A DNA stretch of 32,000 bases from Fibrobacter succinogenes subsp. succinogenes S85 (GCF_000146505.1 NC_017448.1:30001-62000); one strand, 5' to 3'; counted from the stretch's first letter, positions 2,997 through 16,783 are shown. Made by a program: numbers and translations. Notes: generated by a model not told the origin, from the letters alone.

Positions 2997-5087
2997 TTAT
3001 TCGTTTCCTTTCACAGAATTTGTAGCGGTTTCGTTGCCTGCTGCAGGGGCCGGCTGGACGTCGGCAATCGGAGCTACCGGCGGTTGGTCACCCGGGTCAG
3101 GCGGCGGAGTGTTTTCTTCTTCGCGCTTCTTTGCGAGTTCTTCCATGGCCTTGTACTGGCGGCTCTTCTTTGTACCGGTGAGCTTTTCGCCAGCCATGAC
3201 CTTGTCGATTTCTTCGCGGTCAAGCACTTCAAATTCAAACAGCGCTTCGGCGAGGTCGGTGAGCTTGTCCTTGTTTTCTTCAAGGAGTTCCCTTGCCTTG
3301 TTGTCCATGCGCTTGATCAAGTTGTTGATGGCGTTGTCGATTTTTTCCGCCATCATTTCGGACATTTCCTTCGGCTTACTGATTTCGCGTCCGAGGAACA
3401 CTTCGCCATCGGCGCGGCTGTAGCAGACCGGTCCGATTTCTTCGTCGAAGCCCCATTCCGTCACCATCTTGCGTGCAAGTTCTGTAGCGCGCTGGATGTC
3501 GTTACTTGCACCCGTGCTCTGGTGGTTGAAGAAAATGAGTTCGGCGAGACGGCCGGACATCATGATCATGATGCGTTCTTCGGCGTATTCGCGGCTGTAG
3601 CTCACCTGGTCGCGTTCGGGCAAACTCATGGTCACACCGAGAGCGCGTCCGCGAGGGATAATCGTAATTTTGTGGAGCGGGTCGGAGTGCTTGCAGAGAA
3701 GCGTCATGAGGGCATGGCCTGCTTCATGGTAAGCGGTGTGGCGCTTTTCTTCGTCGGTCATGAGGAGCGTGCGGCGTTCAGCACCCATGCTGAGCTTGTC
3801 GCGGGCTTCTTCAAAGTCGAGCATCGTTACTTTCTTGTTGTTGAACCTTGCGGCGAGGAGCGCTGCTTCGTTCACCAAGTTTTCGAGGTCTGCACCGGCA
3901 AGTCCCGGAGTTCCCTTAGCGACTGCCTTCACGTCGACATCATCGCCAAGAGGAACCTTGCGCTTCTTCAAGTGAACCTTCAAGATTTCTTCACGACCCT
4001 TGAGGTCGGGGAGACCCACCACAATCTGGCGGTCAAAGCGGCCCGGACGGAGGAGTGCCTTGTCGAGCACATCCGGACGGTTCGTGGCGGCAATCAAAAT
4101 CACGCCTTCGTTAGCGGTAAAGCCGTCCATTTCCACGAGCAACTGGTTCAAAGTCTGTTCACGTTCATCGTGACCGCCACCGAGACCTGCACCACGCTGA
4201 CGACCCACAGCATCGATTTCGTCGATGAACAAAATACACGGAGCGTTCTTCTTGCCGGTTTCAAACAAGTCACGCACGCGGGATGCACCCACGCCAACGA
4301 ACATTTCCACGAAGTCCGAACCCGACATGCTAAAGAACGGCACGCCTGCTTCGCCTGCAACTGCGCGGGCGAGGAGCGTCTTACCCGTACCCGGAGGGCC
4401 AACGAGCAAAGCACCCTTCGGGATGCGGCCACCGAGCTTGTCGTACTTCTTCGGGTCCTTCAAAAATTCAACGAGTTCCTGCAAGTCCTGCTTGGCTTCG
4501 TCGCAACCTGCAACGTCGTTGAACGTCGTCTTCTTCTGCGAGTTCAGCTGGCGCACCTGGCTCTTGCCGAACGAGAACGGGCTCTTACCGCCACCGCCCA
4601 TCTGACGGCTCATCATGATATAGAAGAACGCAATCAGCAAAATGGCTGGCAAGAATGCAACGAGAGTATCAATCCAGGTGGTCGATTCGTGAATGACCTT
4701 GACCTTCACGCCCTTGAAAGCTTCCCAAGTCGAAATCTGCTCGTTCGAAATATCGAGCATGTGGCTCTTGAAATGCTTGTTCTTCGTGTCGGTACTGTTG
4801 CGGGTGAACCTAGCAAGTGCGCTTTGGCTCTTTTTTGCCTCGGCGATTTCTTCCGGGGACATCTCGTAAGCGCCTTCGATAATCACGCCATCGGGAGTCT
4901 TCTGGAGCGTTAGTTCAGTAATGATCTTGGTTGAATCGCCCATCATGGCTAAAAATTCGGTGCGGGTAATATCCTTGCTGGAATCTTTCCCGGTCATGGG
5001 GAACATGACGAAAAGCATGAGGAGCATGATGAGAACAATGATAAAATTCTTGTTCTTAAACGGAGCTGGCTTCTTAGGTTGATTCAT
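2997..5087 (-). CDS. ftsH: ATP-dependent zinc metalloprotease FtsH
   Basis: Walker A GPPGTGKT, Walker [13 protein letters not shown] region [20 protein letters not shown], zinc site HEAGHA. The ORF is open to 5120. I prefer the ATG at 5087 (MNQPKK...), just ahead of the TM helix. Either start overlaps the tilS 3' end. Confidence 0.93.
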
Positions 5088-6255
5088 TATAATCCTTTTC
5101 TTTCTTCTCGCAAGATACAAATTTTGCGGCTGAAAGCGCGTCCTTGAACTCGCAAATCCAGACAGTATGCGCTATTTTGACGACGGAACGTCGGCGATAA
5201 ACCGCCCGAACCGGGATTTTCACGTGGGCAGGCTCCTTAGGACCGTAGAAAAAGCCAATCGGGAACCGAAAACCCTTTTCCGTGAGCCACAACCGGAACA
5301 TTTCGGACAGATCTGCATCCGCGTATTCGCGTAGAATTTTATTGAGTTTTTTCTTGTCTAATGAGACGAAAGACGAGAGACGAGAGACGAGAGACGCGTC
5401 ATCCTGAGGCGAAGCCGAAGTAAGCGGGAATCCCCTTGTGTCATCCTGAGCGAAGCCGAAGGATCTAGAGCACTTTGCCATCACTTTCGCGTACGCTCTG
5501 TCCGCAAGCCCCGCAATCTTGCAAAGCTGTTGGATTGCCCCCGGACATTCTCGTTCCAGATTCGGCAAAAACTCGTGCCTAATTTTGTTGCGTGCGAATT
5601 TTACATCCGCATTGCTTTCGTCCTCGCACCAGCTTAAACCATTCTCGCGAGCATAGGTGAGGAGTTCTTTGCGAGTGACGTTCAGGAACGGCCGGTAAAG
5701 AAAGACGAGAGACGAAAGACGAGAGACGAGAGACGTGTCATCCTGAATTATTCTTACTTCTTGAATCCCGCGGAGCCCGGCAAGCGTTGTCCCGCGCTTG
5801 AGACGCATATACATTGTCTCCGCCTGATCCCCTGCATGATGCGCAGTCACGATAGCTATCGTGACGCCCCCTTCTTCAATGTCATCCCGGACTCCGTTCC
5901 GGGATCGCCATTTTTTATTCAGAGCAATCTCGACTAGCGCTTTATATCTTGCGTCTCGTGCATTCTCTTCAAGCGAACCTTCTGCATTTTTCAGCGCTTC
6001 ACCATCTAGCTTCTTCAAGAAAAAAGGAACGTCATGCGACTTCGCAAATTCTTCTACAAATTTTGCGTCTCTGTCTGCCGTTCCTTCGCGTAGCCCGTGA
6101 TGCACATGCGCAATACCCAGCCATTCAATACCAAGCGCGGCGCTGTTCTCGATAAAATAATGCGCCAAGCAAATAGAATCCAAACCGCCCGAAACTGCAA
6201 GCAGCAGGCGCTTAAAACCATGATGGCGAATGTTTTCAACTAAATTGAGCGACAA
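5074..6255 (-). CDS. tilS: tRNA(Ile)-lysidine synthetase TilS (short form) carrying three in-frame repeat-derived insertions
   Basis: PP-loop SGGLDS near the N-terminus, [28 protein letters not shown] start at 6255. Repeat DNA is translated as [35 protein letters not shown] and SFGFAQDDT...[14 protein letters not shown]. Confidence 0.85.
5362..5465 (+). repeat. Composite short repeat: 5 heptads ([TA][GA]AGACG) followed by two GTCATCCTGAG(G)CGAAGCCGAAG units
   Basis: Read directly. The heptad array tgagacg aaagacg agagacg x3 spans 5362-5396. The gtcatcctgag units span 5398-5420 and 5440-5465. All of this lies inside the tilS coding sequence. Confidence 0.85.
5701..5747 (+). repeat. Second copy of the 5-heptad array (aaagacg/agagacg) plus TGTCATCCTGA
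   Basis: 5701-5735 is exactly 5 heptads. It is followed by tgtcatcctgaa, the same junction as at 5396-5407. The element lies inside tilS. Confidence 0.85.
5881..5907 (+). repeat. GTCATCC-N14-GGATC palindromic unit (8-bp inverted repeat atcccgga/tccgggat)
   Basis: The sequence gtcatcccggactccgttccgggatcg shares its GTCATCC...GGATC ends with the unit at 5440-5465. It lies inside tilS. Confidence 0.75.
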
Positions 6256-6279
6256 CCCGATAGACCTTCTAATAAAGAC

Positions 6280-6314
6280 AAAAGAGAACTGTCTTTTGAA
6301 ACAGTTCTCCTTTT
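6280..6314 (-). terminator. Intrinsic terminator downstream of the 6364-7380 lipoprotein gene
   Basis: A 9-bp stem (gagaactgt/acagttctc, 6284-6292 with 6301-6309) is followed on the minus strand by TTTTGTCTTT. Confidence 0.65.
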
Positions 6315-6363
6315 AAATTAGAATTTTACGATTATTCTGTTTTTACACTCTAAACTATTTCCC

Positions 6364-7380
6364 TTAATTCTTGGCGTACTGGCTCAGCAATTGTTTTGTT
6401 TCTTCTGTAGGAAGTCCTTTTGTGCATTCGTAGAATTCGTTATTGTTGTCAATTTTGAAACCTTCTACAGGACCTTCTTCATAGTAGAATTGCTCTTCGC
6501 TTTTATCGCGGTCGCTCAGCAAAAATTCTGCACTTTCTTCTTTGCACAATTTCTCGTTGATGAATCCCAATCTTTGTGTGTTTGTGCAAGTCTTTCCATT
6601 GCTAGACATTGTTGTAATGTAGTTCATTCCTGATGCATCAAATTTAGGTGCAGAGACAACTTCAAAGAGTTGGTTGCCGATAGAGAATGATTGCTTTAAT
6701 AATTCTTTGGGTTCCTTTGTTATCGTTTTTTCAACAAGCAGTTGCTTGATGATAGCGTCGCCAATATCATAACCAAAATTGCGATCCAAAATGGCTCCGA
6801 TGTTGATATCATTTTGTTCTAAATTTTCCGTATCAACGGTCGTTGTGATATAAACGGAGTCTTTGGTAATCTTCATGGTTCTTGCGATTCCGCTCATACC
6901 ACCAATGAATTTTGAACACTTGATATCAGTTTCTCCGAGTTGTCTTTTGCAACCGGTGACTTTCCACGTTCCGTAAATATCATTGTGGTCATTGCTCAGC
7001 GACAACGTTTCATAGTTACGGTATAAGTCAAGAAACTCTTGTTCGTCCGGATTGTCTGAAACCTGCTTTTCGGCTGGCCCCATCCAAAGTGAATCACCGA
7101 CAATCTTGTAAGAACCCGGATCCAATGATTCTGGATATTCTTCCCAAGCAAACGTTTTTGTATCGGGGTGGTAATTGCAAACGTATGTTCCTTGGTAAAC
7201 ACGTCCCGTTGTTTCATCGTACTTAATCGGGATGACATAAGTGTATCCTTCACCGAAATCAACATTTGTTTGAGCTGATGGATTTGTATTTTGTGTATTG
7301 TTGAGACCCGATGTCGGATTGTCATCGCTACAAGCAACGAACATGAACATGCCAAATAAAACTGCGTAAGCCTTTTTCAT
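6364..7380 (-). CDS. Hypothetical lipoprotein
   Basis: 338-aa ORF. Signal peptide plus lipobox MKKAYAVLFGMFMFVAC|SDD. I recognise no conserved domain. The segment is AT-rich. Confidence 0.7.
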   Translation of the reverse strand: MKKAYAVLFGMFMFVACSDDNPTSGLNNTQNTNPSAQTNVDFGEGYTYVIPIKYDETTGRVYQGTYVCNYHPDTKTFAWEEYPESLDPGSYKIVGDSLWMGPAEKQVSDNPDEQEFLDLYRNYETLSLSNDHNDIYGTWKVTGCKRQLGETDIKCSKFIGGMSGIARTMKITKDSVYITTTVDTENLEQNDINIGAILDRNFGYDIGDAIIKQLLVEKTITKEPKELLKQSFSIGNQLFEVVSAPKFDASGMNYITTMSSNGKTCTNTQRLGFINEKLCKEESAEFLLSDRDKSEEQFYYEEGPVEGFKIDNNNEFYECTKGLPTEETKQLLSQYAKN

Positions 7381-7439
7381 ATTAGAACCCTTCTTTATTT
7401 AACGATAATATATTAAATTTGTCTATTAAGGAGGCTGTC

Positions 7440-7730
7440 ATGGCTAAAAATAAAGATAAAGTGTTCTGCAAGGTTGCTGAAACCGCCAAAGAAAGCGATA
7501 TGATGCGCATGCGACGCATAGACGGCTCTCAAAATGGAGCCACGTTACGGACAAGAGTTATCCGAGACAAGACAAAGTACAACAGAAATTTGAAGCACAA
7601 GAAGTCCCTCGCAGACGCGGGGGATTTCCCTTTTTTATGGGGCGCTTACCCCTTCCATTCGTCTGTTAAGGCGCAGAAGAAATCAGTACTCCATAAGGCT
7701 AGCTTTGAGGAGTCGGCGATAAATGGTTGA
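7440..7730 (+). CDS. Small basic protein; candidate ArfA/BrfA-like factor expressed from a terminator-truncated (non-stop) mRNA
   Basis: A consensus SD AAGGAGG (7428-7434) sits 5 nt before the ATG at 7440. The product is lysine/arginine-rich (LRTRVIRDKTKYNRNLKHKKS). The nominal ORF runs to 7730 and overlaps the convergent abiEii 3' end, but a hairpin plus T-tract lies inside it at 7602-7637. Confidence 0.5.
   Translation: MAKNKDKVFCKVAETAKESDMMRMRRIDGSQNGATLRTRVIRDKTKYNRNLKHKKSLADAGDFPFLWGAYPFHSSVKAQKKSVLHKASFEESAING
7602..7637 (+). terminator. Intrinsic terminator-like hairpin plus T-tract located inside the 7440-7730 ORF
   Basis: The stem tccctcgc/gcggggga (7605-7612 with 7617-7624, one G-U pair) has the loop agac. 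It can be extended by aag/ttt and is followed by CCCTTTTTT. The U-tract is on the plus strand only. Confidence 0.55.
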
Positions 7731-8509
7731 ACATCTCGCTTAGCTTCGTTGAAATCGACTGCGTGGAATCGTTCTTTTAATAGTATTTTCAATTTAGCAG
7801 TTGTTAAGATTTCTGTAGAATTCCAGTGTCCAGTCTGTTCCATGCGCCTTTGCAAGTGTGGTAGATTGACGCTAGTATTCTGAGAAACATACCATACGAA
7901 ATCATAGAAATCGCGTCCTTTGACCCGGTTCTTCCAACCGCGACAAAGCAAAGCGTGGAGTTTCCCTGCAAAAAGTGAAGGCTTGTCGTAGAGCTTAACA
8001 GCAAAAGGTGAGGGCAAAAGTCGATACTTGTTTTCAAATGTCGCCAATTCAGGCGGATTTGTGTCCACCTCAAATTTGATTTTCAAGATTTCATTGCTTG
8101 GTATGGGCAATGGTGAATGCTTGGTTGGCATGATTTTCAGCAGGTGCTTTAGCGTGTTTCCCTTTAAGAATGCAGATTGTACTTGCGAATCGAGTGATTT
8201 AATCTTGCTTTCGACGATCATTTCCAAGCCGACTGCTTGGAGTTCTTGCTCAAGGATATCAAAATAATGTGGCAGTTCAAATTTTTCATCAACTTGGATT
8301 AACGAAAAATCCATATCTTCCGAGAAACGGTCTAGTCCATAGAAAATTCGGAGGGCTGTTCCTCCATAAAATGCGGCTTTTTCAAAAAAGCCGCCTCGCG
8401 AGAGTCCGCATAGAGCGACTTCCTGTGCAATTTCCTTGAGTGCGTTGCGGTAGTCAGATATGTTTTTGCAGTTGTATTTTGTGAGCATTGATTCTATTAC
8501 ACTTGCCAT
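7646..8509 (-). CDS. abiEii: Type IV toxin-antitoxin system toxin, AbiEii/AbiGii nucleotidyltransferase family (DUF1814)
   Basis: 287 aa. The N-terminal signature EIAQEVALCGLSRGGFFEKAAFYGGTALRIFYGLDRFSEDMDFSL is typical of the family. The start lies 2 nt after the abiEi stop, preceded by the SD GAGGT. Confidence 0.85.
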   Translation of the reverse strand: MASVIESMLTKYNCKNISDYRNALKEIAQEVALCGLSRGGFFEKAAFYGGTALRIFYGLDRFSEDMDFSLIQVDEKFELPHYFDILEQELQAVGLEMIVESKIKSLDSQVQSAFLKGNTLKHLLKIMPTKHSPLPIPSNEILKIKFEVDTNPPELATFENKYRLLPSPFAVKLYDKPSLFAGKLHALLCRGWKNRVKGRDFYDFVWYVSQNTSVNLPHLQRRMEQTGHWNSTEILTTAKLKILLKERFHAVDFNEAKRDVQPFIADSSKLALWSTDFFCALTDEWKG

Positions 8510-8511
8510 GT

Positions 8512-9087
8512 TTACCTCATTTTAGAAAGAATGTAAAGATTCTTCTTTTTGTATAAAAGTGCAATTTTGTGGATAAAATTAAAATCTAAGTTGTTGAAGT
8601 CCTCGTTTTCAATTCGCAAATTCTCAAATAAAAACGATTCCATAGCGCGCTTGCTAGTGATAGGACTTTCCTTGTAGAGTCTGTCGCAAAGCGCCTTTTC
8701 GCAAGTTGCCATAGCGTAGGGGCGGTCTTCTATATTCTCGATATTGACTCCGTTAGGGAATACTTCGGTCGGAATGTCGGAGTATGAAAACTCGCCGAAG
8801 GGTGTTTGGTATAGCTTGTTTTTGTTCTTTTGGAATGATGCTGACGTGTATAGGTTTACTCGTTCGGGAATGAGTCCGTGTCTGGATAGGGCGTATTCGA
8901 ACGATAGGTATGAGGGCCCGTAAATGGCTCCGGCAAGGACTTCGCCAGGTGTGTTGCGGTCGGTTTCGTAAAGGCCTCGTATAATCTTGAAAATTTCTCC
9001 ATGTAAAGTCATTTGCCGCAATTTCATTTGCGGTTGCTTGTACTCTTGACTCAGCGTTGAAAGGATTTCTGAGGCTGTCCTTATCAC
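8512..9087 (-). CDS. abiEi: Type IV toxin-antitoxin system antitoxin / transcriptional regulator, AbiEi family
   Basis: Motifs RGLYETD, YGPSYLSFEYALSRHGLIPERV and the position directly upstream of abiEii. The ORF is open to a TTG at 9099. I prefer the GTG at 9087 because GGAGG lies 5 nt upstream of it. Confidence 0.8.
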   Translation of the reverse strand: MIRTASEILSTLSQEYKQPQMKLRQMTLHGEIFKIIRGLYETDRNTPGEVLAGAIYGPSYLSFEYALSRHGLIPERVNLYTSASFQKNKNKLYQTPFGEFSYSDIPTEVFPNGVNIENIEDRPYAMATCEKALCDRLYKESPITSKRAMESFLFENLRIENEDFNNLDFNFIHKIALLYKKKNLYILSKMR

Positions 9088-9100
9088 GATTTCCTCCAAT

Positions 9101-9379: not shown

Positions 9380-9934
9380 TTAAAACGCCACGTCCATTTT
9401 TAATCCGGCTGCGGCCGCGAGGGGATCAACCGTCGGTGTCACGATGATTTTTGAGCCATCCTTGAGCTCTGTGCGCCTGCGTTTGTATATGTCGTAGGCG
9501 CGCTCGTACGAGGCGCGTTTGCTGTTTTCACCTGTGCCACAGATGATGTCGTGTAGGCTGAATGCTAGGCCGATTGAGCCTGCGACGATGAGGCCTACGC
9601 CCGCAATTTGTAATGTCTGCCTGTGGACTTCTGCCCATGAATTCTTGTCAATGTTTCCGTTATCACTAAATGCGACAATTGTGGTGAATACGCCGAATCC
9701 TAAAGTGATTCCGCTGATGATGCTTGTCGTGGTTGCGCGGCTGACCATATCCTTTTCGGATTGGATCAGGTTCTGGTAATAGCCGTCAAAGTCTACCTGC
9801 GTGAATTCTGCATGCTGGATGGCCTGCACTGAATCCTTGTAAAAATGCGTTTGTCCGTTATCTTCGGAGGCGGTTGCCTGCCCGAATCCGAGTGCGGCTG
9901 CGATAATCAAAAATGCAAATATTCGTTTGATCAT
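9380..9934 (-). CDS. Hypothetical exported/membrane protein
   Basis: SD AAGGAG lies 5 nt before the ATG at 9934. There is a signal-like N-terminus (MIKRIFAFLIIAAALGFGQATA) and two internal hydrophobic helices. I recognise no domain. Confidence 0.6.
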   Translation of the reverse strand: MIKRIFAFLIIAAALGFGQATASEDNGQTHFYKDSVQAIQHAEFTQVDFDGYYQNLIQSEKDMVSRATTTSIISGITLGFGVFTTIVAFSDNGNIDKNSWAEVHRQTLQIAGVGLIVAGSIGLAFSLHDIICGTGENSKRASYERAYDIYKRRRTELKDGSKIIVTPTVDPLAAAAGLKMDVAF

Positions 9935-9949
9935 ATTTTCTCCTTGAAT

Positions 9950-9983
9950 AAAATACAAAAACAGACCGCTTGAATGCGGTCTG
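9950..9983 (-). terminator. Intrinsic terminator of metK
   Basis: An 8-bp GC-rich stem (cagaccgc/gcggtctg, 9962-9969 with 9976-9983) is followed on the minus strand by TTTTTGTATTTT. Confidence 0.7.
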
Positions 9984-10027
9984 CCTTGTAAAGTTTGTTT
10001 GCGATTTTGTCGCTGGCTTGCTTTTTT

Positions 10028-11236
10028 TTAGAAGTCGTATTCAGCAACAATTTCTGCTGCTTTCTTCAAAGCTTCGGCCTTGTCGGTCTTTTCCCACGTG
10101 AAGCGTGCGCCTGTACGGCCAAAGTGACCGAGGGCGGCGGTAGCAACGTAACCCGGCTTGCGGAGGTCAAGCATCTTTTCGATGCCTGCCGGAGAAAGGT
10201 CAAAGTTCTGTGCGACAATTTCTTCGATCTTGCGGTCGTCGATCTTGCCTGTGCCAAACGTGTTCACGAGCACGGAAACCGGCTTGGAGTAGCCGATAGC
10301 GTAGGCAAGCTGCACTTCGCAACGGTAGGCGAGGCCTGCTGCAACAATGTTCTTTGCCACGTAGCGGGCTGCGTAAGCTGCGCTGCGGTCCACCTTACTC
10401 GGGTCCTTGCCGCTGAATGCGCCACCACCATGGCGGCCCATGCCACCATAGGTATCAACGATGATCTTACGGCCAGTGAGGCCGCAGTCGCCGTGCGGGC
10501 CACCGACAACGAACTTGCCGGTCGGGTTCACGAGGTAACGGGTCTTCTTGTCCAAAAGCTTGGCCGGGATGACCTTCTTGATAAGCTTTTCGATGATTTC
10601 CTTTTCGATCTGGGAATGCTTGAGTTCCTTGCCGTTCACCTTTTCGTCGTGCTGGGTGGAGATGACGACGGTGTCAACGCGGACCGGCTTGTCATTTTCG
10701 TCGTATTCAACAGTGACCTGGGACTTGGCATCCGGGCGGAGCCACTTGATCTTGCCCTTTTCGCGGAGGTTCTGGATTTCTTCCATGAGCTTGTGGGCGA
10801 GGCTGATCGGGAGCGGCATGAGTTCCTTGGTTTCCTTGACGGCGTAACCGAACATCATACCCTGGTCGCCAGCACCCTGCTGGTCGTCCTTCTTGCCTTC
10901 GGCAGCCTTGGCGTCAACGCCCTGGGCGATATCCGGAGACTGCTTGTCCATAGCGACGAGCACAGCGCAGCCCTTGTAGTCGAACTGGAGGTCCGGGTTC
11001 ACGTAGCCGATGTTCTTGATGGTGTTGCGAGCAACTTCCTGGAAATCAACAACAGCCTTGGTGGTAATTTCACCAGAGATAACGACGAGACCGGTGTTCA
11101 CGAGAGTTTCGCAAGCGACACGGCTTTTCGGGTCCTGGGCGAGGCAGGCGTCGAGGATGGAGTCGGAGATCTGGTCGGCGACCTTGTCCGGGTGACCTTT
11201 AGAAACGGATTCAGAGGTAAAAAGATAATGTGCCAT
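10028..11236 (-). CDS. metK: S-adenosylmethionine synthetase
   Basis: 402 aa with canonical motifs ([38 protein letters not shown]). Confidence 0.97.
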
Positions 11237-11471
11237 TTGGGGCTCCTATAATAATTCTTTCAATTTTCTTTCTATGCGTAAATTTAGTTAAATGCATAGA
11301 TTGTGGCAACGACAATTTAATCCAATAAGGCTTTTTATACCCAAAATCGCACTTTTGTGTTGTAAATAAAAATTATGTATCTATATTTCCTATAGCTAAC
11401 AATAGAAAGTTGGATGGTGGAGAGTTGATTCTGGCATGGTGCCGGGATGTTTTGCTTATCAAGGAGAATTT

Positions 11472-16140: not shown

Positions 16141-16143
16141 AAG

Positions 16144-16219
16144 CGGGATAGACGAGGCTTGAACTCGCAACCTCCGGCGTGACAGGCCGGTGCTCTAACC
16201 AAAATTGAGCTACCACCCC
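16144..16219 (-). tRNA. tRNA-Asp (anticodon GTC), copy 1
   Basis: Manual cloverleaf of the reverse complement GGGGTGGTAGCTC...CCGGC-CTGTCAC-GCCGG...TTCAAGC...CTATCCCG. 76 nt, CCA not encoded. Confidence 0.9.
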
Positions 16220-16244
16220 AAAATCGTTTCCGATTCTTCGGTAG

Positions 16245-16319
16245 TGGACGATAACGGATTCGAACCGCTGACATTCTGCTTGTAAGGCAGACGCTCTGAA
16301 CCAGCTGAGCTAATCGTCC
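16245..16319 (-). tRNA. tRNA-Val (anticodon TAC)
   Basis: Manual cloverleaf of GGACGATTAGCTCAGCTGGTTCAGAGCG-TCTGC-CTTACAA-GCAGA...GGTTCGAATCC...ATCGTCCA. 75 nt, CCA not encoded. Confidence 0.9.
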
Positions 16320-16325
16320 AAATGA

Positions 16326-16517
16326 TTACTTGTCTTTGTCCTTGCCGCTGTAAAGGATTCCGAGAGGAATGATCACAACGTAAGCAATCGTCAAGATAAT
16401 CGGTGCAACAGAAAGGCTTACCGGATTATCTGCAGGGCCTGTACCCAAGCAAATAAAACCAATAATGAGTAGTAAAATGCCAATACCGATAAGAATAAGA
16501 TTCTTTTTGTTCAACAT
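16326..16517 (-). CDS. Small two-TM membrane protein (DUF3098-like)
   Basis: 63 aa, MLNKKNLILIGIGILLLIIGFICLG...IILTIAYVVIIPLGILY, with a lysine-rich tail. A near-consensus promoter lies upstream. The stop codon is 6 nt before the tRNA-Val 5' end. Confidence 0.6.
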   Translation of the reverse strand: MLNKKNLILIGIGILLLIIGFICLGTGPADNPVSLSVAPIILTIAYVVIIPLGILYSGKDKDK

Positions 16518-16543
16518 TTTCTACAACCTCGAGTTACGAGCCA

Positions 16544-16571
16544 AATATACAAATATTAAAAGTCTTGTCAA
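16544..16571 (-). promoter_or_regulatory. Sigma-70-like promoter TTGACA-N16-TATATT for the small membrane-protein gene and downstream tRNAs
   Basis: On the minus strand, TTGACA is at 16571-16566 and TATATT at 16549-16544. This is about 27 nt upstream of the ATG at 16517. Confidence 0.45.
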
Positions 16572-16669
16572 CCGGAAACGGTGTTTTTCGCGAAAAAAAG
16601 TGAAAAACTTTAAAGGAGATTCTTGCTCGGTGGCGGGCATGACAGAGGAACCGGTCCAATGATTTGAGT

Positions 16670-16703
16670 ATAAACGAAAAGACCTCTCTTCCGAGAGGTC
16701 TTT
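16670..16703 (-). terminator. Intrinsic terminator after tRNA-Asp copy 2
   Basis: The stem gacctctc/gagaggtc (16681-16688 with 16693-16700) has the loop ttcc and is followed on the minus strand by TTTTCGTTT. Confidence 0.65.
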
Positions 16704-16707
16704 GTCG

Positions 16708-16783
16708 CGGGATAGACGAGGCTTGAACTCGCAACCTCCGGCGTGACAGGCCGGTGCTCTAACCAAAATTGAGCTACCACCCC
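16708..16783 (-). tRNA. tRNA-Asp (anticodon GTC), copy 2
   Basis: Sequence identical to copy 1 over the 76 nt I compared by eye. Confidence 0.9.

Follow-up and report, generated by a model that had tools for sequence, protein, structure and literature searches.

What can a short open reading frame (ORF) encode when a transcription terminator lies within it, ahead of its stop codon? This question is raised by a 96-codon ORF on the plus strand of the 32,000-nucleotide (nt) stretch of Fibrobacter succinogenes subsp. succinogenes S85 DNA analyzed here (GCF_000146505.1 NC_017448.1:30001-62000; hereafter the window). To our knowledge, the release of non-stop ribosomes, those on mRNA without a stop codon, is essential in all bacteria tested. 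We consider it probable that the ORF gives rise to a transfer-messenger RNA (tmRNA)-gated, ArfA-like ribosome rescue peptide, dependent on a release factor (RF) and made from a programmed non-stop mRNA. The original prediction had proposed an ArfA/BrfA-type analogue at this site, and the idea is supported as far as sequence analysis allows, the terminator in frame being conserved across the genus. The features of the locus are as follows, in window coordinates.

7414-7421, plus strand: promoter-like element TAAATTTG, of the TAnnTTTG type, 6 nt 5' of the Shine-Dalgarno (SD) sequence
7428-7434, plus strand: SD sequence AAGGAGG, read directly, with a 5-nt spacer (CTGTC) before the ATG at 7440
7440-7730, plus strand: ORF of 96 codons, from the start ATG at 7440 to the stop TGA at 7728-7730
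7440-7634, plus strand: codons 1-65 (MAKNKDKVFCKVAETAKESDMMRMRRIDGSQNGATLRTRVIRDKTKYNRNLKHKKSLADAGDFPF), the part of the coding sequence that is conserved and is predicted to give the non-stop product
7542-7604, plus strand: ArfA-like core motif TLRTRVIRDKTKYNRNLKHKK, residues 35-55, with Lys52-His53, aligned by hhalign
7601-7628, plus strand: terminator stem-loop of 12 base pairs with loop AGAC, in frame, encoding K-S-L-A-D-A-G-D-F
7629-7638, plus strand: U-rich tract CCUUUUUUAU, with the transcript 3' end predicted at ~7634-7638
7635-7730, plus strand: read-through tail, not conserved, up to the first in-frame stop (TGA, 7728-7730), in overlap with the abiEii 3' end
7646-8509, minus strand: convergent AbiEii toxin gene (Pfam AbiEii, E 7e-31)

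The arms of the hairpin occupy 7601-7612 (5') and 7617-7628 (3'), and the tail that follows (CCTTTTTTAT) has a run of T at 7631-7636. A consensus terminator scan listed this hairpin first among its plus-strand matches, with 12 pairs, seven of them G-C, followed by CCUUUUUU. The centroid fold has an energy of -20.6 kcal/mol, and a 56-nt segment gave z = -3.2 as compared with dinucleotide shuffles. A GC-rich stem-loop and a U-rich tract, as in an intrinsic (Rho-independent) terminator, are thus both present on the transcribed strand, and transcription is predicted to end there. The reverse complement of the hairpin is followed by CTTGTGCTTCAA, with no run of T, so the terminator is one-way and belongs to the small ORF. 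The hairpin starts at codon 54/55, the product at residue 56 ends in ...LRTRVIRDKTKYNRNLKHKKS as read from the sequence, and the in-frame stop lies 92 nt past the hairpin and U tract.

Most of the layout given in the original prediction was confirmed by direct reading: a consensus SD sequence 5 nt before the ATG at 7440, a U tract on the plus strand only, and a stop at 7728-7730, about 92 nt on and inside the convergent abiEii gene. Its hairpin with a T-rich tail is likewise in frame; the extent it gave (7602-7627, from codon 56) required a trivial correction.

A protein search of ~5.8 billion proteins returned 529 relatives, the named ones all "hypothetical protein" and all from Fibrobacter or metagenomes. 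A scan with one genome per species gave a sample of 51 loci, all from Fibrobacter or Fibrobacterales. Together, the gene is represented in 51 species genomes and over 500 protein clusters. A mechanical ORF list starts the ORF at a TTG (7419); the start conserved among relatives is the ATG at 7440 with its SD sequence, AAGGAGG being near-invariant in the related loci, and the products of relatives begin MAK. Twenty-one residues are invariant among 26 diverse sequences from Fibrobacter loci. Codon differences were counted pairwise for residues 18-56 across the 51 loci. The ratio of synonymous to nonsynonymous differences was 14932:6828 in frame versus 1724:19819 and 1634:20504 (~1:12) in the other two frames. 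The third position varied in 37 of 39 codons, the first in 19, and the second in 15.

Because the synonymous excess is specific to one frame, the gene must be translated and a non-coding RNA is excluded; judged by these substitutions, the gene is under purifying selection. This bears on the notion that the locus specifies a small RNA, or the leader peptide or attenuator of a downstream gene, rather than a protein. In favor of such an element, the predicted transcript is short and its hairpin and terminator are strong, but the element would account neither for the frame-specific excess and the variability of third positions nor for the conservation of the SD sequence and ATG. In addition, the downstream genes vary by genome and the next gene here is convergent, so nothing constant is present to be attenuated. 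The small RNA or leader peptide was ruled out by the synonymous excess, and we assign it almost no probability.

A TAnnTTT(G/A/C) motif, which we take to be a putative Bacteroidota-type -7 element, is conserved in most of the 51 loci, lying a few to ~15 nt 5' of the SD sequence depending on the locus. At window positions 7390-7421 and their equivalents in L001-L051, a TTTA/TTTG element is often found ~19 nt 5' of the TAnnTTTG motif, and the pair resembles, at the sequence level, a Bacteroidota-type -33/-7 promoter.

The original prediction called for the ORF and its internal hairpin to be conserved together in related genomes. In 50 of the 51 loci, the same hairpin and T-rich tail occur at the same codons, and no in-frame stop precedes the hairpin. 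Chance does not explain a hairpin and U tract at the same codon in so many loci. Nearly all loci have a T-rich tail after the stem (weaker in L050). By the alignments, the in-frame terminator is conserved and structurally constrained. Standard pairs fill 94.9% of the hairpin alignment cells (31 distinct hairpins), versus 39-59% when partner columns are slid. One pair varies among G-U, A-U, and G-C, and at another, C-G is replaced by A-U in five sequences and by U-G in four. The five with A-U form a divergent lineage in which TCCCTCGC/GCGGGGGA is replaced by TCCATCGC/GCGATGGA with pairing kept, and the encoded SLADAGDF becomes SIAxAMDF while the stem is maintained. As amino acids were altered in this lineage and pairing was not, the selection there is on the RNA and not on the amino acids. 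A variant represented by the P0095 cluster (127 contigs) has a 27-nt insertion, with the terminal hairpin and U tract intact and the stop 24 nt later. The inserted sequence repeats part of the hairpin's 5' arm (L070:1660-1750; …KKSLGFCYGLKSLADAGDFPF), and another variant, P0109, duplicates LKHKKSLADA.

Conservation ends where the transcript is predicted to end. At the DNA level it rises from ~7405, stays at 0.7-0.97 through 7637, and then drops to about zero. At the protein level, the family alignment is near-invariant to ...KHKKSLADAGDFPF (~residue 65) and continues in unrelated tails. Among the matches listed, all 120 homologous proteins, which are 70-143 amino acids in length, pass through a ...DFPF-type segment (with occasional substitutions) into such tails. 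The first in-frame stop occurs 9-234 nt past the end of the stem (median 60 nt, mean ~23 codons), and this wide scatter looks like that of unselected sequence. An ordinary small basic protein, in which the hairpin is a leaky terminator or attenuator at the end of the ORF and the read-through product is the functional one, would be in keeping with the long forms (70-143 amino acids) that gene callers annotate as hypothetical proteins and with the imperfect U tract. It is hard to reconcile with tails unrelated in both sequence and length, with the tail in the window entering a strain-specific AbiE insertion, with DNA conservation that stops at the U tract, and with the scattered distances to the first stop, and we hold it to be very improbable. 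The read-through protein as the real product was rejected, as its tail is not conserved.

Programmed non-stop genes are known from two rescue systems. For arfA, the mRNA is without a stop codon, and trans-translation keeps its expression down (PMC10107115). Folding of the arfA genes of Neisseria, Vibrio, and Shewanella (sequences from Table S2 of PMC11633108) showed a hairpin and T-rich stretch before the stop. In B. subtilis, brfA has 71 codons and a Rho-independent terminator within the coding region, and its product has ~62 residues; BrfA accumulates only without SmpB, and this control is lost when the terminator is destroyed (PMC6881298). A terminator inside the ORF, as in arfA and brfA, is therefore a regulatory signature of RF-dependent alternative rescue factors, and the Fibrobacter gene has it, before the stop and conserved among its relatives.

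The original prediction had noted a loose parallel between the basic stretch of the peptide and the tail of ArfA, and this proved to be a specific match in register. When the family alignment (A7) was compared with an ArfA alignment (A6) by hhalign, residues 35-55 (TLRTRVIRDKT---KYNRNLKHKK) aligned with ArfA 24-47, with a score of 22.8 (P 5.8e-4 / 3.1e-4). Column shuffles (300 of either alignment) scored 8.8 ± 1.9 (maximum 15.4) for ArfA and 9.0 ± 2.1 (maximum 18.3) for the family, and 0 of 300 shuffles attained 22.8 in either case. The core segment [LF]RxRV...YxRKxKH was recovered in this match, the order and spacing of [LF]-R-x-R-V ... Y-x-R-x-x-K-H being common to ArfA and the family. Hidden Markov model (HMM) alignments gave the same register. 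The family consensus TLRTRVVxDKK---KYxRKxKHK aligns with Vibrio ArfA LFRTRVVKAKKGKGSFQRKAKH, and Vibrio ArfA also has RTRVV. E. coli ArfA and the window peptide, moreover, both touch Pfam DUF7230 from profile position 19 (19-38 and 19-35, respectively).

By the structural literature, the aligned stretch corresponds to the middle and C-terminal regions of ArfA. The middle region provides the β-strand that docks onto RF2, and the basic C-terminal region lies in the empty mRNA entry channel. There, the KH motif, present in both ArfA and BrfA, contacts 16S rRNA, with the Lys-His pair bound in a pocket; this pair is the only notable sequence feature that the two proteins have in common (PMC6881298, PMC8012679). 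Across the Fibrobacter alignments, K52 never varies, and H53, K54, and K55 vary rarely or not at all; KHK is common in distant relatives. Lys52-His53 lies ~11-13 residues before the predicted mRNA 3' end. A positively charged C-terminal region with a Lys-His motif, as in the RF-dependent rescue factors ArfA, BrfA, and ArfT, is thus present. The predicted product (~65 amino acids) is also similar in length to active ArfA (~55-60 amino acids). The sequences point to a motif in common with ArfA; homology is not thereby proven.

The two families also differ. The invariants of ArfA alignment A6 are I11, D13, N14, A18, L19, and K34-G35-K36-G37-S38. The family has a three-residue gap at the position of the ArfA KGKGS loop, and in place of the ArfA N-terminal helix, which carries A18, it has its own conserved KES..R..RIDGSQNGA. 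ArfA scores for the family are only 5-14 bits; a local ArfA HMM (--max) gave ~5-9 bits for the best dozen family sequences, as compared with 77-90 bits for genuine ArfAs. ArfA is restricted to beta- and gamma-proteobacteria (PMC11633108), whereas the family occurs in Fibrobacterota and phage-like contigs.

With BrfA (YqkK), the likeness is one of design. Both have a terminator inside the ORF (71 codons and ~62 amino acids for BrfA versus 96 codons and ~65 amino acids here), both read the U tract as Phe codons (…DKDFFV versus …AGDFPF), both have a Lys-His pair in the basic C-terminal region ~12 residues before the mRNA end, and both start MAK. Each is also narrow and lineage-specific in distribution, BrfA being limited to the B. 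subtilis group. Sequence similarity, however, does not extend beyond composition. In the structure of BrfA, N-terminal helices contact H69 and H71 of 23S rRNA. ArfT (Francisella tularensis) and ArfB/YaeJ also act as back-ups in the rescue of non-stop ribosomes. ArfT is RF-dependent, as proposed for the Fibrobacter peptide, whereas ArfB/YaeJ has a GGQ catalytic domain and the 96-amino acid product has no GGQ and no match to the Pfam RF-1 domain.

Such a back-up would fill a gap in the phylum, in which the original prediction knew of no rescue factor of this type. In a survey covering 15,259 genomes, not one of the 1956 from the Fibrobacteres-Chlorobi-Bacteroidetes (FCB) group had arfA; F. succinogenes S85 was recorded there as having smpB and ssrA and lacking arfB, arfA, smrB, rqcH, and mutS2 (PMC11633108). 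In a survey made before that one, the Fibrobacteres/Acidobacteria group had no ArfB (PMC4235212). By current surveys, F. succinogenes has tmRNA-SmpB only and no known back-up. Literature searches, including full-text ones, found no prior description of an ArfA-like rescue factor from Fibrobacter or phages.

The best database matches of the peptide are DUF7230 (PF23876) and three phage protein families, phrog_2701, phrog_18092, and phrog_6310, which are profiles of 42-46 positions aligning with residues ~35-57; none of them has been assigned a function or is reported to have a non-stop design. DUF7230 matches the window peptide with 20.6 bits (E 5e-4) at profile positions 19-35 of 42, below the gathering cut-off of 27. 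At E<=0.01 it matches 19 of the 40 sequences scanned, which comprised the window peptide and 39 distant relatives, with a best E of 4e-6; E. coli ArfA touches it weakly (E 0.083). The PHROG families match the basic core; the window peptide gives E of 1e-5 to 1e-4, and relatives reach 7e-8. Apart from the sub-threshold DUF7230, no curated family emerged when the peptide was scanned against NCBIfam and Pfam, and a literature search found no paper mentioning DUF7230. The family profile retrieved nothing at E<=10 from all PDB chain sequences, which include ArfA chains and should include BrfA.

When 1.84 billion cluster representatives were searched exhaustively with a profile, 106 clusters at 50% identity were obtained. 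These distant members are 46-75 amino acids in length, with the consensus KExxRxRxERIxGxxNGxTLRTRVVxDKxKYxRKxKHK, and some of them keep a hairpin and U tract within the frame, with a tail free to vary after them. Fifteen of the loci are on IMG/VR viral contigs of 26-415 kb; contigs were called phage by IMG/VR classification and gene content. The neighboring genes mostly have no Pfam domains, exceptions including NAPRTase, a nicotinamide mononucleotide-adenylyltransferase-like protein, and a Thg1-like tRNA-His guanylyltransferase. Five loci have 4-12 tRNA genes within 3 kb of the homologue. In a tblastn search with three family members, none of 50,697 GenBank phage records matched, and two of the three stayed without a match at E<=1; the phage link is therefore based on IMG/VR and metagenome contigs only. 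The tie to phage translation modules offers circumstantial, independent support for a translation-related role.

The tRNA arrays are in L052, L056, L057, and L058 (within ~3 kb upstream) and in L069 (~1-2 kb downstream), phage-like contigs of 10-248 kb in which the homologue has a normal stop. In L060, the gene for the Thg1-like tRNA-His guanylyltransferase (phrog_4717, 2e-58) is directly downstream of the homologue. The promoter-like motif described above (GCTATATTTG) occurs just 3' of the homologue in phage-like loci L055 and L059-L062.

Several results weigh against a rescue peptide made from a non-stop mRNA. Pfam ArfA (PF03889) gave no match at E<=10 for either the 96- or the 66-amino acid form (gathering score 25.5 bits), and none at E<=0.01 among the window peptide and 39 distant relatives. 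The N-terminal G-x-I-x-DNAxxAL helix and the KKGKGS loop of ArfA are absent from the Fibrobacter family, in agreement with the original remark that the N-terminus does not resemble ArfA. Comparison of the family alignment (A7) with a BrfA alignment (A4; brfA sequence from Table S2 of PMC11633108) gave a score of 9.5 (P 0.32), which is the shuffle background. An AlphaFold2 monomer model (25-sequence alignment) with two long helices had a predicted local distance difference test score of 56 and was judged uninformative. The U tract is interrupted (CCUUUUUU; UUUUCCUUUA in some relatives). One locus, L038 (L038:3001-3237; Fibrobacterales bacterium Fibro_02, a metagenome-assembled genome), is the sole case of hairpin loss among the 51. 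Its ORF ends with a TGA after ...KKSLADVM (61 amino acids), and another canonical terminator (ACCCCGAAAGTTG...CAACTTTCGGGGTTTT) lies 3' of this stop; it may be a natural "stop-containing" version of the peptide. Lastly, in most of the distant phage-type homologues an ordinary stop follows KHK within a few residues and no hairpin is present; they lie within tight arrays of unknown genes, all on one strand. The non-stop design is thus not universal in the family; a constitutive short form would still be compatible with the model.

Some of these results could be taken to mean that the peptide is non-stop and tmRNA-gated but is some other ribosome- or nucleic acid-binding effector instead of an RF-dependent rescue factor. 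It might, for example, inhibit translation, act like a hibernation factor, serve as a stress signal, or be a phage protein for manipulating translation that has been domesticated. The non-stop architecture by itself shows only coupling to tmRNA, membership in the ArfA and BrfA families failed, the closest profiles (DUF7230 and phrog_2701/18092/6310) are families of unknown function, and many relatives are phage-borne with normal stops. However, arfA and brfA are the only programmed non-stop genes described in the literature found, and both encode rescue factors; the match is specifically to the RF-docking and channel-binding core of ArfA, the KH pair included; and Fibrobacter is without every other known back-up. 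On this balance we think such an effector rather unlikely. We favor a rescue peptide that would work like ArfA and may be a very distant relative of it, and that by the profiles lies outside the ArfA and BrfA families as now defined. It is a probable new family of ArfA-like rescue factors; what is new is the family and phylum, with phage relatives, and not the mechanism as a category.

The proposed mechanism is as follows. A promoter-like motif, a strong SD sequence, and the ATG at 7440 would make up a self-contained transcription unit of ~220 nt, whose transcript would end at the intrinsic terminator inside the ORF as an mRNA without a stop codon. Ribosomes would arrive at its 3' end with a basic peptide of ~64-66 residues. 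With trans-translation working, tmRNA-SmpB would tag this product for degradation and little would accumulate; once tmRNA capacity is exhausted, the untagged peptide would accumulate. If it behaves as ArfA and BrfA do, the Lys/Arg-rich part at its C-terminus (…RDKTKYNRNLKHKK, with the Lys-His pair) would enter the empty mRNA entry channel of stalled ribosomes, and the TLRTRVV segment would, as a β-strand, dock a class-I RF, most likely RF2. The outcome would be peptide release independent of a stop codon. Termination at this site, SsrA tagging, ribosome binding, and RF recruitment are all inferred in this scheme.

The gene is chromosomal in Fibrobacter. Upstream and divergent from it in the window are tilS and then ftsH (2997-7380, minus strand); tilS is divergent upstream in 42 of the 51 loci, and a lipoprotein gene sometimes intervenes. 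FtsH is one protease that degrades SsrA-tagged proteins, and the linkage of the small ORF to tilS-ftsH may be coincidental. Between tilS and the lipoprotein gene, a palindromic hairpin with T runs on both strands (6280-6313), found by the terminator scan on both strands, looks like a bidirectional terminator.

Downstream, AbiEii and an AbiEi-like antitoxin form a pair (7646-9099, minus strand) between the terminator of the small ORF and a gene at 9380-9958 followed by metK. The pair is a strain-specific insertion. It is not present in the close relative L005, in which the neighboring lipoprotein is 99% identical and the terminator is directly followed by homologues of the 9380-9958 gene and metK. 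Only L001 keeps an AbiEii fragment (52 amino acids). The tail in the window enters abiEii only because of this insertion. ORFs of 609 and 418 amino acids antisense to ftsH and metK (3084-4913 and 9995-11251, plus strand) are most likely shadow ORFs of a GC-rich coding strand and not genes. A cluster of tRNA-Asp(GTC), tRNA-Val(TAC), and tRNA-Asp(GTC) is at 16143-16783 (minus strand). No tmRNA gene was found anywhere in the window.

A broader proposal, which we advance tentatively and with more doubt than belief, is that ArfA is the proteobacterial tip of a wider, unrecognized superfamily of mRNA channel-binding rescue peptides, with another branch in Fibrobacter chromosomes and gut and rumen jumbo phages. 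If this is true, phages would mostly encode the peptide with a normal stop, constitutively active and beside tRNA arrays, where, in the course of infection, it would keep ribosomes available or subvert termination; the tmRNA-sensing non-stop control would be retained in Fibrobacter and in some phage-like elements. The FCB group would then have its first alternative rescue factor, which would also be, to judge from the literature searches, the first one encoded by phages.

The authors of the BrfA study predicted that many bacteria harbor unidentified rescue systems (PMC6881298). The locus described here is a concrete, testable candidate for a rescue factor in a new phylum, recognized by the signature of a terminator inside the ORF and linked by its motif to the functional core of ArfA. 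It suggests that scanning for conserved in-ORF terminators could find such factors systematically, and that large phages may carry rescue factor-like peptides among their translation genes. The finding has a bearing on trans-translation inhibitors as antibiotics and on the takeover of translation by phages.

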